Positions 2,098-19,329 of a stretch of 64,000 bases of DNA are shown one piece after another. How positions within the stretch are numbered: the first letter of the stretch is position 1; each line of letters starts with the position of its first letter. Position numbers and translations under genes: made by a program. This DNA comes from Candidatus Methylomirabilota bacterium. GTDB lineage: Bacteria > Methylomirabilota > Methylomirabilia > Methylomirabilales > 2-02-FULL-66-22. The stretch covers positions 1,203 through 65,202 of the forward strand of contig JAPLLC010000220.1 in NCBI GenBank assembly GCA_026387775.1, in the 5' to 3' direction. The notes below the pieces were generated by a model. That model ran no database searches and was not told where the DNA came from. It saw only the letters and a list, made by a program, of their open reading frames with translations.

Positions 2098-3507
2098 ATG
2101 GCAACCCGGTTCGATGTCCTGCTGAAGAACGGCTGGGTGGTTGACCCGACCACGGGCCTGAATGGGGTGGCGGATGTGGCGGTGGTGGGCGGGCAGATCG
2201 CCGAGATCGCGGCCGATCTCGACCCCACCCGGGCGGACGAACTCTTCGACGTCTCGGGTGCCCACGTGGTCCCCGGCATCATCGATCTCCACATGCACGC
2301 CTCCGAGTGGCTGGGCGGAAAGTGGGGCCACAAGATGATGGCCCGGGTGGGCGTCACCACCGCCCTGGACATGTCCGGGCCCGTGGGCAGCGTCATGCGC
2401 ATGCTCCGCGACCACGGCACCGGCCTCAACATCGCGTGCATCGAGGCGGTGCGACCGGGCCTCACCGTGCGGGACAGCAACCCGGATCGGGCCGAACTGG
2501 AAGGACTCCTCGGCGCAGCGCTGACCGGTGGGGCCATCGGCATCAAGCTCCTGGGTGGCCACTATCCCCTCACCCCGGAGGCGACGGCTCGCGCGATCGC
2601 GCTGGCGAACGCCCGCCATGCCTACGTGGCGTTCCATGCCGGCACCACGAATCAGGGGTCGAACATCGACGGTTTTCTCCAGGCGGCGGAACTGGCGGCG
2701 GGGAACGCGGTCCACATCGCCCACATCAACAGTTACTGTCGCGGGGCGGTGCGGCCGCACATGCAGGAGACGGAGGAGGCCATCGCGGCGCTCATCGCCC
2801 ATCCCAACCTCCGCTCGGAGAACTACTTGTCACCCCTGAACGGCACGAGCGCCAAGTGCGCGAACGGCGCGCCGGAGAGCCGCGTGACCCAGCAGTGCCT
2901 GAAGGTCGGCGGGTTCCCGCCCACCGAGTCGGGCTTCGAAGCGGCCATCCTGGCGGGATGGGCGGAGATCAACCTGGAGGCGGGCGGCGAGGTGGTCCTG
3001 GCCACGGGAAAGCCCGCCGTGGAATACTGGCGGCAGCGGACCACCGACACCACGGTCAGCTTCCGGGTCAACCCGCCCGAGCCGCGATTGCGCCTGGCCA
3101 CCGCCAAGCGGCCCGACGGGCGGTTCGTGGTGGACTGCATCAGCACCGACGGCGGCGGGATCCCCCGCAACGTGATCGTCGAGATGGGGCTGGCCCTGGT
3201 GAACCTGCAAGCCCTCGGCCTGGCCGACTTCGTGCGCAAGACGAGCGCGAATCCGGCACGGATCCTGGGCTTGGCAAACAAGGGGCGACTGGCTGCCGGG
3301 GCGGATGCGGACATCACGGTGCTGGATGTGGCGGCTCGGAAAGCCGTGCTGAGCCTCGCCAACGGCGCGGTGATCATGCATCGTGGGCACGTCTGCGGCC
3401 AGGGGGGGCGGATGATCACGACGGCGGCGGGGCGGGGAGCGGTGGAGGCCGCCGGTTTGATCCCGATCGTCGTGGATGTGGAACAGGGAGGGTTTTATCG
3501 GTTCTAG
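2098..3507 (+). CDS. Amidohydrolase-superfamily metallohydrolase (substrate unknown)
   Basis: The N-terminal beta-sandwich (FDVLLKNGWVVDP...VAVVGGQIAEI) is followed by the metal-binding motif PGIIDLHMH and a C-terminal GADADITVLD-type segment. ATG 2098 is preceded by AGGAGG. The long ORF 1462..3507 is an upstream extension overlapping purM. Confidence 0.75.
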   Translation: MATRFDVLLKNGWVVDPTTGLNGVADVAVVGGQIAEIAADLDPTRADELFDVSGAHVVPGIIDLHMHASEWLGGKWGHKMMARVGVTTALDMSGPVGSVMRMLRDHGTGLNIACIEAVRPGLTVRDSNPDRAELEGLLGAALTGGAIGIKLLGGHYPLTPEATARAIALANARHAYVAFHAGTTNQGSNIDGFLQAAELAAGNAVHIAHINSYCRGAVRPHMQETEEAIAALIAHPNLRSENYLSPLNGTSAKCANGAPESRVTQQCLKVGGFPPTESGFEAAILAGWAEINLEAGGEVVLATGKPAVEYWRQRTTDTTVSFRVNPPEPRLRLATAKRPDGRFVVDCISTDGGGIPRNVIVEMGLALVNLQALGLADFVRKTSANPARILGLANKGRLAAGADADITVLDVAARKAVLSLANGAVIMHRGHVCGQGGRMITTAAGRGAVEAAGLIPIVVDVEQGGFYRF

Positions 3508-15351: not shown

Positions 15352-16632
15352 TCACGCGGTCTTCATGATGTCCTTGTAACGAATGACGCCGAGGATGCGA
15401 TCCTGCGCATCCACCACGGGAATCATGCGATAGTGGTACTTGGCGAAGATCTGTTCCAGGTCCTCTTGTGTGTCGTCCTGCTCCGCCGACACCACGGGAA
15501 ACGCCATGATCTCGCCCAGGGTTATCTCATCCCCGGCCAGCAGGAGCTCGCGCAGATCCACGACACCCTGCAAGAGCTTGCTCTCGGGCGCCACGACGTA
15601 GGCGTAAGAGAGGTGGTGCGGCTCGAGCCCGGAGCGGCGAATATACTCCAGCACCTCGCGGACCTTCGCCTCTTTCGGAAAGGAGACGAATTCCCCCGAG
15701 AGGAGGTCGCTCGCCTTCGCCTCTCGCGCCGCCAGGATCGTCTTGATCCGCCGAACGCTCTCATCCGGCAAGAGCCCCATCATCTCGGTCGTGTCGTCGT
15801 GCGGAAGCACCGTGAAGAGGTTCGCCAGTTGCGGGATGGTCATCTCCCCCAGGATCTGGCGTGCGCGCTCCTTGCGCAGGTTGGCGATCAACTGCCGCTG
15901 CGCCCGCGGCTCCGCCTCCAGCAGGGTGTCGGCGGCCTTCTCGGAGTCCAGGGCCGAGAAGAGGGCCTCCTGCTCGTTGCCGGTCAGCTCTTCCAGGGCG
16001 TCGGCCAGATCCTCGCTGGGCAGCTCTTTGAGCTGTTTCCGGGTCACCGAGAGCGAAACCTTGTCCGTGATGGTGGCGTCCTCGAGCGAGAGCGGCTGGA
16101 CATACTTCCAGGAGATCAGATCCTCCTTGAACCCCTGGATCCGTCCGAGTCCCCAGCGCCGCAGAAAGCCGTTGAACGAGCTGTCCACATGGATCAGGAG
16201 CAGCCGCCCCTTGGCCTCGAGCAGGTGCACGTCGTTGACCACCTCGGTGCGCCGCCCGTCCATATCCAGGATCGTCCGGCCCATCAGGTGGGTGTCCAGC
16301 ATGATCCAGCCGGGCTGGTCCGCGAAGGGAGGGTAGCTTCCACCCTGCTCGGACGGCAAGACGAAGATCGCATCGTCTTCGATCCGCAGCACTCGATCCC
16401 ACGGGATGATCTCCGTCGGTTTTCCCCAGCCGTGCTCGAGATAGATCCCGACCACCTCGGGGTACGGCTCCTTGAGGGCGAACACCAGATCCGTCAGTCT
16501 CCCAACCCGATCCCGGATCTTGCCCGCGCACACCGGCCGTTTCATCAGGTCGGAGAAGTAAAGGAAGCGGTAGCTGCCGATCCCCGGGGGGAGATCAGGG
16601 ACCCTCTGCATCAGGCTGGGTGGCGTGCCCAT
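15352..16632 (-). CDS. Soluble PRC-barrel + MgtE N-domain + CBS-pair protein (MgtE cytoplasmic sensor module without a membrane domain)
   Basis: The N-terminal PRC-barrel-like segment is YFSDLMKRPVCAGKIRDRVGRLTDLVFALKEPYPEVVGIYLEHGWGKPTEIIPWDRVLRIEDDAIFV. The central acidic helical MgtE_N-like region is LPSEDLADALEELTGNEQEALFSALDSEKAADTLLEAEP...IANL. The C-terminal tandem CBS is VVAPESKLLQGVVDLRELL...IPVVDAQDRILGVIRYKDIM. No hydrophobic segments are present. AGGAGG lies upstream of ATG 16632, which is 10 nt after the Nramp stop. Confidence 0.7.
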   Translation of the reverse strand: MGTPPSLMQRVPDLPPGIGSYRFLYFSDLMKRPVCAGKIRDRVGRLTDLVFALKEPYPEVVGIYLEHGWGKPTEIIPWDRVLRIEDDAIFVLPSEQGGSYPPFADQPGWIMLDTHLMGRTILDMDGRRTEVVNDVHLLEAKGRLLLIHVDSSFNGFLRRWGLGRIQGFKEDLISWKYVQPLSLEDATITDKVSLSVTRKQLKELPSEDLADALEELTGNEQEALFSALDSEKAADTLLEAEPRAQRQLIANLRKERARQILGEMTIPQLANLFTVLPHDDTTEMMGLLPDESVRRIKTILAAREAKASDLLSGEFVSFPKEAKVREVLEYIRRSGLEPHHLSYAYVVAPESKLLQGVVDLRELLLAGDEITLGEIMAFPVVSAEQDDTQEDLEQIFAKYHYRMIPVVDAQDRILGVIRYKDIMKTA

Positions 16633-16641
16633 GGCAGCCTC

Positions 16642-17961
16642 CTACTGCGTCGTCCCGAACCACTGCGGGAACAGCGTGCTCAGGGCAAACAGGGTGGACA
16701 TGATGGTCATGAAGATGGCGATGCTCACGTTGGCGATGTTCTGCCATCGGGTGTTCACCCGGTCGCCCATGAACTCCGGAGAGTTCAGGATCAGGATGAG
16801 GAAGAAGAGACAGGCCGGCAAGAGCGTGACGGCCACGATCTGGACGAACATGGTGATCGTGATCAGCGGCGCCCCCGGGATCAGCACCACCGCCCCGGAG
16901 CTCAGGAGCATCGCCAGGTAGACCACGTAGAACCAGGGCGCATCCCGCACGCTCTTGTTCAGCGAGTGGGCCCAGCCGAAGACCTCCCCCACGGCCCAGG
17001 AGGTGGACAGGGAGATGCACAGGGCCCCCAGGAAGCCCGCATCGAACAGGCCGATGGCGAAGAGCTTGCGGGCCAGATCTCCCTGGCCATGTGGGAGCAG
17101 CGGGACCAGGGCTTCCGCGGTCTGCTTGGCATCCTCGATGGTGATCGGCGGCCGGTGATAATAGAAAGCCGCGCCGGTGGCGATGATGATGAACGCCGCC
17201 ACGGTGCAGGTCACCAGCGAGCCGACGAATGTGTCGATCTTGCCGAACTTGATGTCGTGGAGGTCCAGACCCTTGTCCACCACGGCGCTCTGCTGGAAGA
17301 AGATCTGCCAGGGGGTGATGGTGGTGCCGATGTTGGCCAGGATGATGAAGAGCATGTCCCCCGTGAGACCGCCGGTGAGCGTCGGCACCAGCAGCCCCTT
17401 GGCGACCAGCCCCCAGCCCGGGGCGCTCGGCGTCTCCATCGCCCAGAAGGCCGCGGGGATGTAGACCAGGTTGAACGCGCAGAAGAACAGCGTCAGCTTC
17501 TCGAAGGTCCAGTACCTGCCCGTGATCACCACGACGAACAGGATGGCGGTGACCCCCAGGAACGTGATCCACGGTGAAACGCCGAACAGGCTCATGGCGG
17601 CCATCATCCCGATGTATTCGGTCACCAGGGTGAGCCAGTTGACGATCGCCAGGTCCACCAGCGAGAACCAGCCCCAGAATGGGCCGAACCCTTCGAAGAT
17701 GACCTCCGCGTGGCCGCGCTTGGTGACCGCGCCCAGCCGCACGGTCATCTCCTGGATGTAATAGGCCATGGGGACCAGGATGAAGAAGATCCAGAGGAGG
17801 CTGAAGCCGTACTTGGAGCCGGTTACGGCATACGTCGAGATGCCGCCGGCGTCGTTGTCGGCGACCATGGTGATGATCCCGGGGCCGAGCACGGCGAAGA
17901 GGATCAGGAGCCGCCGCCGAAAGCGGTTCAGGAGGTGGAAGGTTTTGCTGATCCAGTACAT
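16642..17961 (-). CDS. Nramp/SLC11-family transporter of the Nramp-related magnesium transporter (NRMT/NrmT-like) type
   Basis: The 439-aa polytopic protein has Nramp-type TM1 (GPGIITMVADNDAGGISTY) and TM6 (ANIGTTITPWQIFFQQS) blocks. The canonical DPGN is replaced by DAGG, and the canonical GAxxMPH by GTTITPW. The gene sits directly behind an M-box riboswitch. Confidence 0.8.
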   Translation of the reverse strand: MYWISKTFHLLNRFRRRLLILFAVLGPGIITMVADNDAGGISTYAVTGSKYGFSLLWIFFILVPMAYYIQEMTVRLGAVTKRGHAEVIFEGFGPFWGWFSLVDLAIVNWLTLVTEYIGMMAAMSLFGVSPWITFLGVTAILFVVVITGRYWTFEKLTLFFCAFNLVYIPAAFWAMETPSAPGWGLVAKGLLVPTLTGGLTGDMLFIILANIGTTITPWQIFFQQSAVVDKGLDLHDIKFGKIDTFVGSLVTCTVAAFIIIATGAAFYYHRPPITIEDAKQTAEALVPLLPHGQGDLARKLFAIGLFDAGFLGALCISLSTSWAVGEVFGWAHSLNKSVRDAPWFYVVYLAMLLSSGAVVLIPGAPLITITMFVQIVAVTLLPACLFFLILILNSPEFMGDRVNTRWQNIANVSIAIFMTIMSTLFALSTLFPQWFGTTQ

Positions 17962-18104
17962 GGGCGGTTCCGATCATTTGTCGACGCGGCGGCCGCTCGG
18001 CGCGGGCGGCGGAAATCCCGGGCGGCTTCCACCCCGGTACACGAGGATCCCGGGGCTCCTTCTTCACATAGCGGGCGGCGATGGGAATGCGCGATGCGCT
18101 GCAG

Positions 18105-18137
18105 AAACAAAAACCCTTTCCCTGGGTGGGGAAAGGG
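18105..18137 (-). terminator. Intrinsic terminator (expression platform of the M-box)
   Basis: On the minus strand it reads CCCTTTCCC-CACCCA-GGGAAAGGG followed by TTTTTGTTT. It lies between the riboswitch aptamer and the Nramp start codon. Confidence 0.65.
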
Positions 18138-18194
18138 TCAAGACCCTCGACCTTGGCACTTAACAGACGCGCCAACGTCTCCGATCTGCCGGAT

Positions 18195-18365
18195 TCCCCA
18201 CTCGTTCAAGTTTTGGCACCGCGCACCGTGAGAGGCCGACGGCCTCAGCCACTTCGAGCAAACCCTTAATCCGGGAGTGCTTGGTCTACCCGTCAACCAG
18301 CGTCTCTCGACGCCGCCGGGCAGCGGCCTGTGTGTCGCGCGGGAGCCTCACCTACCGAGGACCCG
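18195..18365 (-). promoter_or_regulatory. M-box (ykoK-type) Mg2+-sensing riboswitch aptamer
   Basis: The minus-strand RNA reads CCUCGGUAGGUGAGGCUCCCG...ACAGGCCGCUGCCCGGCGGCGUCGAGAGACGCUGGUUGACGGGUAGACC...AUUAAGGG...GGUGCCAAAACUUGAACGAGUGG. This reproduces the conserved M-box blocks as I remember them from B. subtilis mgtE: GUUAGGUGAGGCUCC, GCUGCCC, AGACGCUAAUGGGUCAAC, AAGG, GUGCUAAAGCUCUACGA. P1 pairing is CCUCG/CGAG. Confidence 0.8.
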
Positions 18366-18429
18366 TAACATGTTCTTTCGCTGCCATCACGCGGAGCCGC
18401 CACGGGCCGCCCCGCGAATATCCAACCGC

Positions 18430-18458
18430 TATTTAAGCCGAGATAGCCGGCCTGTCAA
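18430..18458 (-). promoter_or_regulatory. Sigma-70-like promoter for the M-box/Nramp operon
   Basis: The minus strand reads TTGACA-17 nt-TAAATA (ttgacaggccggctatctcggcttaaata), about 60 nt upstream of the aptamer. Confidence 0.45.
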
Positions 18459-18555
18459 CCCCCAAAGTGCATGCGTGCAAAGAAACTTTCTCCGATCCAA
18501 CCATCAGGCTCGCCGGTCAAGCCCTCCTATCCGCCTGGGCGAATATCGCCCCTTG

Positions 18556-19329
18556 CTACTGGCTCAGCGTCAAGACCCCCTGCATGGCGTCAAGCTGCAC
18601 ATGGAACCGCGAAAGGAAAGTGTTGCCCAGCAGACCCGCCACCTGAAGGGCCCCGGGCAGGTCGAACACCACGACCTGCACGTCCCGCGCCTCGGCCCCG
18701 CCCACCTGGATGGACTCCACGCTGGCGACAGGGGCGCGGATCATGCCCGAGGCGGTGGCGATGGTCACCATCGGCGAGCCGGAGCCGAAGGAGATGCCCA
18801 GTTCCTGCGCCAGCCCCGTCGAGATGGTGGTAAGACTGGCGCCCGTGTCCACGACGAACAGGGCCTCGCGGCGCCCGTTCATCAGGGCGCGCACAAGAAA
18901 GGCGTTGCCCGCGCGGATGAGGGGCACGGCGACCTTCCAGCTCTGCGAACTCGGCAACTCGGCGGAACCGCCCAGGTTCACGTCCACCTGCGCCGTGGCC
19001 CCTGCCCGCACGGTCACAGCCCTGCTGGAAGAGGTGAAACCCTGTTTGGAGACGTTCAGACGGTAGTTCCCAGGAGACACGCGGCTGAAGGTGAATCGCC
19101 CCTGGCTGTCACTACGGACGCCGCCCACACCCTCCAGGACGACGTCCGCCCCCTCCAGCAAGACGTTGTTCTGGGAGAGCACGCTGCCCATCACCGCCCC
19201 CAGCGAGGACGAATCCTGCGCCCGAGCCGGGGTTGGCAGGAACAGCAAGACTACCAATGCTGCCACAAATGTCCGCACGAAGTCCTCCGACGTTCGGGAA
19301 AATATAATAGGGGTAGCATTATCTGTCAT
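18556..19329 (-). CDS. Secreted CarboxypepD_reg-like domain + retropepsin-like (clan AA) aspartic protease
   Basis: It has a signal/anchor segment (FVAALVVLLFLPTPARAQD). A beta-sandwich regulatory-like domain follows (GSVLSQNNVLLEGADVVLEG...DSQGRFTFSRVSPGNYRLNVSKQGF). The C-terminal retroviral-type protease fold carries the catalytic FVVDTGASLTTIS. Confidence 0.65.
   Translation of the reverse strand: MTDNATPIIFSRTSEDFVRTFVAALVVLLFLPTPARAQDSSSLGAVMGSVLSQNNVLLEGADVVLEGVGGVRSDSQGRFTFSRVSPGNYRLNVSKQGFTSSSRAVTVRAGATAQVDVNLGGSAELPSSQSWKVAVPLIRAGNAFLVRALMNGRREALFVVDTGASLTTISTGLAQELGISFGSGSPMVTIATASGMIRAPVASVESIQVGGAEARDVQVVVFDLPGALQVAGLLGNTFLSRFHVQLDAMQGVLTLSQ

Follow-up and report, generated by a model that had tools for sequence, protein, structure and literature searches.

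The leader of an Nramp-family gene in the 64 kb stretch of DNA analysed here (the window), which belongs to an uncultured NC10/Methylomirabilota-type bacterium, raises the question of which signal this leader reads, how it would pass the signal on to transcription, and which ion the downstream gene product carries. A sequence-only reading of the locus had proposed an M-box (Mg2+) riboswitch with its own promoter and intrinsic terminator. Our analysis indicates that the locus is very probably an M-box Mg2+ riboswitch that works as an OFF switch of transcription and controls a two-gene operon, composed of nrmT, the predicted product of which is an Nramp-related Mg2+ transporter, and a second gene, which encodes a soluble protein with PRC-barrel, MgtE_N and CBS domains. 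All elements lie on the minus strand. The arrangement of an M-box, nrmT and an MgtE-like neighbour has been known since 2014 (PMC4072509), and the window is a further example of it.

The element that identifies the leader is the following:

18190..18366, minus strand: M-box (ykoK-type) aptamer, from the RF00380 match, covariation and the leader alignment

The search with RF00380 on the minus strand that the sequence-only reading had proposed returned a significant match at 18366..18190, which covers the model in full (positions 1-169 of 169) and scores 120.4 bits, well above the gathering score of 44, with E = 2.3e-26. This was the sole Rfam match within the window. The blocks originally quoted in support of the M-box call, GGUAGGUGAGGCUCC, GCUGCCC, GAGAGACGCUGGUUGACGGGUAGAC, UUAAGGG and GGUGCCAAAACUUGAACGAG, were all located inside the matched interval. 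The aptamer ends 229 nucleotides (nt) ahead of the nrmT start on the same strand, and thus occupies a 5′ leader position.

For comparison, relatives were collected as 80 loci from a genome scan, and Rfam scans placed an M-box upstream of nrmT in 11 of them. For most of the other 69 loci the absence is real, because the sequence upstream of the gene extends over 1 kb or more in about 75 loci. In the NC10-type loci L001, L002, L004 and L005 the M-box adjoins the gene, and in five of the seven M-box loci of Syntrophobacteraceae/deltaproteobacterial type (L042, L048, L054, L056, L058, L062 and L079) it lies ~1.1 kb upstream. The closest locus, L001, is from an uncultured NC10 metagenome-assembled genome (MAG) with 95% amino-acid identity, and is syntenic with the window over 7.3 kb at ~95% nucleotide identity; the window sequence is also carried by a metagenome contig (L081). 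The leader comparisons were made either on all 12 M-boxes, which fall into two lineages, or on the five NC10-type leaders. RNAalifold run on all 12 M-boxes predicted 49 pairs, 14 of which show two-sided changes that keep the pair, and the independent covariation events among them are few because the variation falls mostly between the two lineages. Among the five NC10-type leaders the aptamer is nearly invariant. These results support the identification of the leader RNA as an M-box.

Downstream of the aptamer, the leader continues with a linker and a terminator:

18149..18179, minus strand: hairpin in the linker between aptamer and terminator, from the fold and from leader sequences read by eye
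18112..18139, minus strand: intrinsic terminator hairpin of 11 pairs with a 6-nt loop, from the terminator call and a fold of -18.1 kcal/mol
18105..18113, minus strand: terminator U-tract TTTTTGTTT, from the sequence and the terminator call

The intrinsic terminator named in the sequence-only reading is thus present; its hairpin, with the arms GACCCTTTCCC/GGGAAAGGGTT, is the only terminator-like site in 17500..19000, and the distance from the end of the U-tract to the ATG of nrmT at 17961 is 142 nt, in agreement with the 'about 140 nt' given there. A script detected a hairpin followed by a U-run in 10 of the 12 leaders, and reading of the remaining two showed the same sequence there. At the base of the terminator stem, the five NC10-type leaders show compensatory swaps (GA...TT, GG...CC and CG...CG). 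Furthermore, one stem pair changes from C-G to U-A between the lineages in a MAFFT alignment; this alignment has register shifts between the lineages and recovers 7 pairs, and was used for that one change alone. The linker hairpin, as read by eye, is present in the relatives examined with a variable sequence.

A riboswitch of this kind would need a strand that can belong either to the aptamer or to an antiterminator, and two segments are proposed for this role:

18194..18203, minus strand: 3′ strand of the aptamer helix P1, GAGUGGGGAA, proposed 5′ half of the antiterminator, from the fold, complementarity and metagenomic leaders
18126..18133, minus strand: UUCCCCAC, proposed 3′ half of the antiterminator, running from the terminator 5′ arm into the loop; exact complement of GUGGGGAA in P1

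The predicted duplex of UUCCCCAC and GUGGGGAA amounts to -15.4 kcal/mol. In 11 of the 12 leaders, the P1 3′ strand is complementary to the terminator 5′ arm and loop over 8-10 bp. With the antiterminator in its proposed register 92% of the alignment cells were paired, and when the partner was slid by 1-3 columns the proportion was 38-68%. No two-sided pair changes were found in the antiterminator within the 12-leader set, so that in this set complementarity is conserved and covariation is not demonstrated. A larger set was obtained by scanning metagenomes for the P1 3′ strand type, which gave 113 loci and from these 59 distinct leaders in which the aptamer is complete and a terminator could be called. 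The terminators of these 59 leaders are of quite different types (CCAUUCC..., CCUCUUCCC... and GGCCCUUUCC..., for example). For 40 of the 59 leaders, the best partner of the terminator 5′ arm and loop, among about 200 windows of 12 nt tested along aptamer and linker, was the P1 3′ strand, compared with ~3 expected by chance; the mean advantage was 2.1 kcal/mol. In several families the terminator loop bears ACUCG, which is complementary to CGAGU of P1. Where the variable base of P1 is C, the partner is G in all 12 cases; where it is U, the partner is A in 15, G in 16 and unpaired in 16 (Fisher p = 0.003 for the association, uncorrected for relatedness). The best-partner result fits a classical Mg2+ OFF transcription attenuator.

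The transcript of the leader would begin at a promoter upstream of the aptamer, and three features lie in this part:

18453..18458, minus strand: promoter -35 hexamer TTGACA, from the sequence, the pattern count in the window and the alignment of related leaders
18430..18435, minus strand: -10-like hexamer TAAATA after a 17-nt spacer; alternatively read as TTAAAT with a 16-nt spacer
18385..18420, minus strand: 5′ leader hairpin between promoter and aptamer, stable in the minimum-free-energy fold

The TTGACA-17-TAAATA promoter was found where the sequence-only reading had placed it, 64 nt ahead of the aptamer. Counting both strands, the pattern occurs once in the 64 kb, whereas 0.00 occurrences were expected from 100 shuffles, even with one mismatch permitted, and it is conserved in four related leaders. 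In the alignment of the five NC10-type leaders, TTGAC is unchanged beside flanks that diverge and cannot be aligned, and GGCnTAAAnA is kept in four of the five, L001 having TAAGGA and a longer spacer. A generic sigma-70 scanner run over 17500..19000 did not call the promoter, because the -10 hexamer ends in A and the rule demands T at position 6; since the pattern is unique in the window and conserved in relatives, this miss was not counted against it. The 5′ hairpin region differs in sequence and length among the five leaders, and the hairpin may serve as a 5′ stabiliser or be without function.

Combined, these elements suggest the following course of events. Transcription would begin a few nt past the promoter. 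At high cytoplasmic Mg2+, the aptamer at 18366..18190 would compact and P1 would close, holding its 3′ strand GAGUGGGGAA, which would leave the hairpin 18139..18112 and its U-tract free to form, and RNA polymerase would terminate ahead of nrmT. At low Mg2+, P1 would stay open and its 3′ strand would pair with UUCCCCAC as soon as the latter is transcribed; the antiterminator so formed would block the terminator, and the operon would be read through. The choice between the two states would be kinetic and made during transcription. Of this account, the analysis shows what the aptamer is, the presence of the terminator, the conservation of both, the complementarity between the two strands and what the genes are, and it infers Mg2+ as the ligand, the start site, the termination and the direction of the switch.

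To ask whether the gene products fit such a signal, the two genes downstream of the leader were compared with known proteins:

16642..17961, minus strand: nrmT, Nramp-related Mg2+ transporter (predicted), 439 amino acids (aa), from PF01566, the match in the PDB and site motifs
15352..16632, minus strand: gene for the 426-aa operon partner with PRC-barrel, MgtE_N and CBS domains, from the domain search and the 2YVY match

The nrmT product belongs to the Nramp family (PF01566, E = 3.7e-72), reached 107 bits with the NCBI MntH model, the cut-off of which is 430, and found its best solved relative in EleNRMT (7QIA; 216.8 bits), every other Nramp structure in the PDB scoring at most 68.7 bits. The site signature of Nramp-related Mg2+ transporters (NRMTs) has been described for EleNRMT by Ramanadane et al. 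(PMC8806188). Helix 1 of the nrmT product carries DAGG rather than DPGN, identical to EleNRMT, and DNDAGGI is found in 120 of 120 close homologues, which are the best 120 of thousands and are 79-96% identical. Helix 6 reads TTITPW (within IGTTITPW) against TTIAPW in EleNRMT; it keeps the Thr ligand and lacks the Met. Where canonical Nramps have this Met and EleNRMT has Ala, the window protein has Thr, as do 113 of the 120 close homologues, with Ala in 6 of the 120; this Thr may matter for ion selectivity. Ala was also observed at this position in many deltaproteobacterial loci, with or without an M-box. In helix 6b, the first His of the proton pathway is replaced by Trp, as in EleNRMT, and the second by Gln, where EleNRMT has Asn. 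The EleNRMT match, the DAGG motif and the Met-less helix 6 support the assignment of the nrmT product to the NRMT clade of Mg2+ transporters, and thereby the earlier claim that the downstream transporter handles Mg2+.

The operon's second gene, which had been overlooked in the sequence-only reading, starts 9 nt past the nrmT stop and encodes a protein with no membrane domain. Residues 196-423 of this protein align with the cytosolic Mg2+-sensing domain of Thermus thermophilus MgtE (2YVY, 91.8 bits), and residues 24-94 form an N-terminal PRC-barrel (PF05239, E = 7.7e-08). The pair of nrmT followed by the PRC-MgtE_N-CBS gene was found in 78 of the 80 loci, and the contigs of the other two end after nrmT. 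Because the tblastn alignments of the partner in the 78 loci begin at query residues 1-24, the PRC-barrel appears to be conserved throughout the partner clade; in the portions of the 2014 description of the partner drawn on here (PMC4072509), MgtE homology alone is mentioned.

Between the terminator and nrmT, the window differs from its relatives by an insert that precedes a weak ribosome-binding site:

17974..18102, minus strand: 129-nt lineage-specific insert between terminator and ribosome-binding site, from the alignment gap against L001 with clean junctions
17968..17971, minus strand: weak Shine-Dalgarno sequence GGAA (GGAG in L001), 6 nt ahead of the ATG

The insert, a GC-rich stretch for which structure is predicted (-44.7 kcal/mol), has no counterpart in the 95%-identical L001 and is bounded by clean junctions (TTTCT / insert / TCGGA). 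No second copy was found in the window or the 80 loci, and a repeat or mobile element was rejected on this ground. Among the NC10-type leaders the distance from terminator to ATG thus ranges from ~17 nt in L001 to 142 nt in the window. No upstream open reading frame (uORF) and no relic of the [D/E]PPS motif described below were found in the 142-nt spacer, and a by-eye likeness to the uORF region of Acidobacteriota was unsupported by blastn. Upstream AUGs near the nrmT start in L004 and L005 were considered as a conserved uORF and rejected, the frames differing between the strains.

Several results weigh against a Mg2+-controlled transcriptional OFF switch. The covariation of the antiterminator in the 12 leaders is not significant, with shuffles reaching the observed value in 144 and 87 of 500; the P1 strand did not rank first in 19 of the 59 metagenomic leaders, some of which probably have mis-called terminators, and the statistics of this larger set are uncorrected for relatedness; the -10 hexamer resembles TATAAT poorly; and the 142 untranslated nt after the terminator make further layers of control possible. 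In addition, the terminator state wins at equilibrium even without P1 (-123.9 kcal/mol, compared with -117.6 kcal/mol when the antiterminator is forced). The folding check suggested by the sequence-only reading revealed no equilibrium bistability, as the minimum-free-energy fold always retains the terminator, even when the 5′ strand of P1 is removed. Equilibrium folding was dropped as proof of a bistable switch, and the comparative evidence was relied on, because thermodynamics alone shows none. Because the terminator state is the more stable at equilibrium, the switch must be kinetic. Kinetic control is usual for transcriptional riboswitches.

The spacer bears on the question of whether the M-box works mainly through Rho-dependent termination, translational control or both, the spacer being a Rho loading zone and the hairpin with its U-tract being secondary. 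This mode is used by the Mbox of pe20 in another GC-rich organism, Mycobacterium tuberculosis (PMC12810186), the untranslated 142 nt are somewhat C-rich (54 C and 46 G, with a C/G ratio of 1.6 in the first 40 nt), and the Shine-Dalgarno sequence of nrmT is weak. The C excess is modest, however, and all 12 homologous leaders, like most of the metagenomic ones, have a canonical hairpin with a U-tract past the aptamer, which is precisely complementary to the P1 3′ strand. Moreover, the 129-nt insert cannot be essential to the switch because it is absent from L001, where the U-tract is 14 nt from the Shine-Dalgarno sequence. Given the conserved canonical terminator and the missing insert in L001, we regard it as unlikely that a Rho-dependent or translational platform is the principal mechanism, but such a platform may add a further layer. 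Another proposal is that the M-box is a decaying relic and that the operon is expressed from another promoter past the terminator, for example inside the insert. The insertion does part the switch from its gene, in the window strain only, and 69 of the 80 operon relatives have no M-box; yet the five leaders show almost no variation in the aptamer, the P1 3′ strand or the terminator, beside flanking leader sequence that cannot be aligned, the covariance model score of the window is as high as that of other M-box members, and the scanner reported no promoter-like site in 17500..19000. The near-invariance of aptamer and platform beside such flanks contradicts decay, which is left with almost no probability.

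Nramp proteins are classically Mn2+/Fe2+ importers, and the aptamer could accordingly sense another divalent cation such as Mn2+, the operon being a Mn2+ uptake system. The window protein has Thr where EleNRMT has Ala, EleNRMT itself carries Mn2+ as well as Mg2+ (PMC8806188), and PMC4072509 cites (as its reference 49) structural work on M-box complexes with bound manganese. The same paper reports that the Ca_c0685 M-box is Mg2+-responsive in vivo and that NrmT genes rescued a Mg2+-transport-deficient strain. The transporter of the window lacks the Met that confers transition-metal selectivity and has the DAGG motif of NRMTs, its operon partner is homologous to the Mg2+-sensing domain of MgtE, and the same M-box subtype stands ahead of genes for MgtA-type P-type ATPases (L103, L107) and CorA (L119). 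A Mn2+-sensing role is very unlikely in view of the Mg2+ response on record, the site without Met, the MgtE-like partner and the occurrence of this M-box subtype ahead of CorA and MgtA-type genes. The M-box of the window is best read as a Mg2+-responsive transcriptional OFF switch of the nrmT operon.

Many of the relatives that lack an M-box carry a different kind of leader. In 25 of 77 upstream regions, 117-296 nt upstream of nrmT, there is a short open reading frame (ORF) that has a strong Shine-Dalgarno sequence and, close to the N-terminus, a conserved [D/E]-P-P-S core (an example being GGAAAGGAcagATGGAACCNCCAAGT, read as MEPPS...), whereas none of the 77 reverse complements has one and control motifs were found in 0-5 of 77. 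Such uORFs were found in L007, L008, L011, L015, L017-L019, L021-L029, L031, L034, L035, L037, L049, L050, L067, L069 and L072, all of which are M-box-less, at positions ~2700-2890 in loci that have the nrmT start at 3001. Synonymous variation is seen in the Pro and Ser codons, Ser being encoded by AGT as well as by TCG/TCA. The peptide reads M-E-P-P-S-R-E-S-D... in loci of Acidobacteriota type and ...D-E-P-P-S-W... in loci of Holophagaceae type. In deltaproteobacterial loci, a conserved small ORF with ...D-G-R/Q-P-P-S... (MDENDGRPPSCGGPETVWKLCQ and MKQEDGQPPSSGGCPF...) follows ~50 nt past the M-box terminator, at ~2066-2135 in L048, at equivalent places in L054, L056, L058 and L062, and at ~2490-2573 in L079; M-box and PPS leader peptide thus stand in series in Syntrophobacteraceae/deltaproteobacterial loci. 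L048 has an additional ORF of 115 aa (2534..2881) ahead of nrmT. In Acidobacteriota leaders (L015, L019, L021, L023, L026, L028, L029 and others), a conserved inverted repeat, GCGCGTCTCCG...CGGAGACGCGC, lies past the MEPPS uORF, ~105-150 nt upstream of nrmT. Its 3′ arm contains GGAG, and ~7 nt beyond this GGAG a second short ORF begins with ATG; in L019 this ORF stops ~12 nt before nrmT. From its sequence, this repeat looks like the hairpin of a translational attenuator that would sequester the Shine-Dalgarno sequence. The [D/E]PPS uORF was not found in the window or the NC10-type loci.

In the MgtL leader peptide, acidic and proline residues render translation responsive to Mg2+, by which mgtA is controlled (PMC11552253), and it is plausible by analogy that the [D/E]PPS peptide senses Mg2+ in an MgtL-like manner. 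We tentatively consider, as a proposal with somewhat less than even chances, that the M-box is one of two interchangeable Mg2+-sensing leaders for the nrmT and PRC-MgtE_N-CBS cassette. The NC10-type lineage would then use the M-box alone, many Acidobacteriota and Holophagaceae the [D/E]-P-P-S peptide, and the Syntrophobacteraceae-type loci both in series; the peptide could sense Mg2+ as Salmonella MgtL does, through ribosomes that stall or are destabilised at codons for acidic residues and proline. If true, the cassette would be a natural case of an RNA sensor and a translational sensor that are swapped or stacked for the same ion. No link between nrmT and a leader peptide was found in the literature, and the peptide on the cassette of the M-box-less relatives is the part that could raise a new question.

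Two further observations concern the surroundings of the relatives. In three loci of Syntrophaceae type, L038 (2829-2891), L043 (5818-5880) and L074 (5851-5916), the PRC-MgtE_N-CBS gene has a fluoride riboswitch (RF01734, 52-53 bits) shortly downstream of it; these riboswitches are presumably the leaders of a neighbouring crcB-type gene, unrelated to the M-box. In 7 of 10 sampled metagenomic loci without nrmT (L085, L086, L088, L100, L105, L118 and L124), the first long ORF, 63-302 nt past the aptamer match, encodes a secreted protein of ~500 aa and is preceded by an M-box with the same P1 3′ strand. Two of these products were checked and both are OprB-family porins (PF04966), so that outer-membrane porins of this family are apparently, as judged from these matches, under the control of a Mg2+ riboswitch.

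Taken with the site motifs and the MgtE-like partner, the riboswitch allows a gene that would be labelled "Nramp/MntH" to be relabelled as an importer of Mg2+, not Mn2+/Fe2+, and this extends to the many 80-96% identical homologues in MAGs from soil and peat. The documented range of the M-box-nrmT arrangement now includes an NC10/Methylomirabilota-type genome, and the clean, conserved expression platform is suited to in vitro study. The NC10-type host, the order with nrmT first, the single partner ORF with an N-terminal PRC-barrel, the Thr at the canonical Met position and the strain-specific 129-nt insert are particular to this locus; they leave the kind of system unchanged, and the understanding of M-boxes or NRMTs is not altered by the finding. 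The sequence-only reading had held an M-box in such a GC-rich genome to be worth documenting. The presence of the M-box stands, but the argument for novelty is weak, since M-box-nrmT loci were reported in 2014 and led to the discovery of NrmT (PMC4072509), and an M-box from GC-rich M. tuberculosis has been characterised (PMC12810186).

The closest known system is that of Clostridium acetobutylicum. Shin et al. sought M-boxes upstream of transporter genes for metals other than Mg2+ and, in their 2014 paper (PMC4072509), reported M-boxes ahead of Nramp-related genes "mostly in Clostridia and Deltaproteobacteria", demonstrated Mg2+-dependent repression by the Ca_c0685 riboswitch, found that the Nramp-related genes rescue a strain deficient in Mg2+ transport, and named the clade NrmT, most members of which have a neighbouring gene with homology to the cytoplasmic N-terminal domain of MgtE. 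As in the window, Ca_c0685 has an M-box and an intrinsic terminator upstream of nrmT and an MgtE cytoplasmic-domain gene in the operon. The two differ in the host and in the Thr at the canonical Met position of the window protein, and the partner, which in the window follows nrmT as a single ORF with a PRC-barrel, is split into two genes in C. acetobutylicum and lies upstream in A. capsulatum.

On the protein side, EleNRMT of Eggerthella lenta (7QIA; PMC8806188) shares with the window transporter the DAGG motif, the Thr-x-x-[small]-Pro-Trp motif, the replacement of both His of the proton pathway and, in the alignment, the helix-10 Gln. It differs at the equivalent of Ala227, which is Thr in the window, and at the second His position, where the window has Gln rather than Asn. 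On the RNA side, the pe20 Mbox of M. tuberculosis (D'Halluin et al. 2026, PMC12810186) is likewise an M-box in a GC-rich genome, but it has a translational platform, Rho-dependent termination and a small uORF, whereas the window has a canonical intrinsic terminator and no conserved uORF. The M-box of Bacillus subtilis mgtE (ykoK) shares the aptamer architecture of the window, as the full-length match to the covariance model indicates, and the OFF switch proposed here, in which a Mg2+-stabilised P1 would sequester the antiterminator strand and let the intrinsic terminator form, is of the same kind. Compared with B. subtilis mgtE, the window combines this architecture with an NRMT gene downstream, a sequence of 66% GC, a linker hairpin of ~50 nt between aptamer and terminator, and a 142-nt spacer from terminator to start codon.

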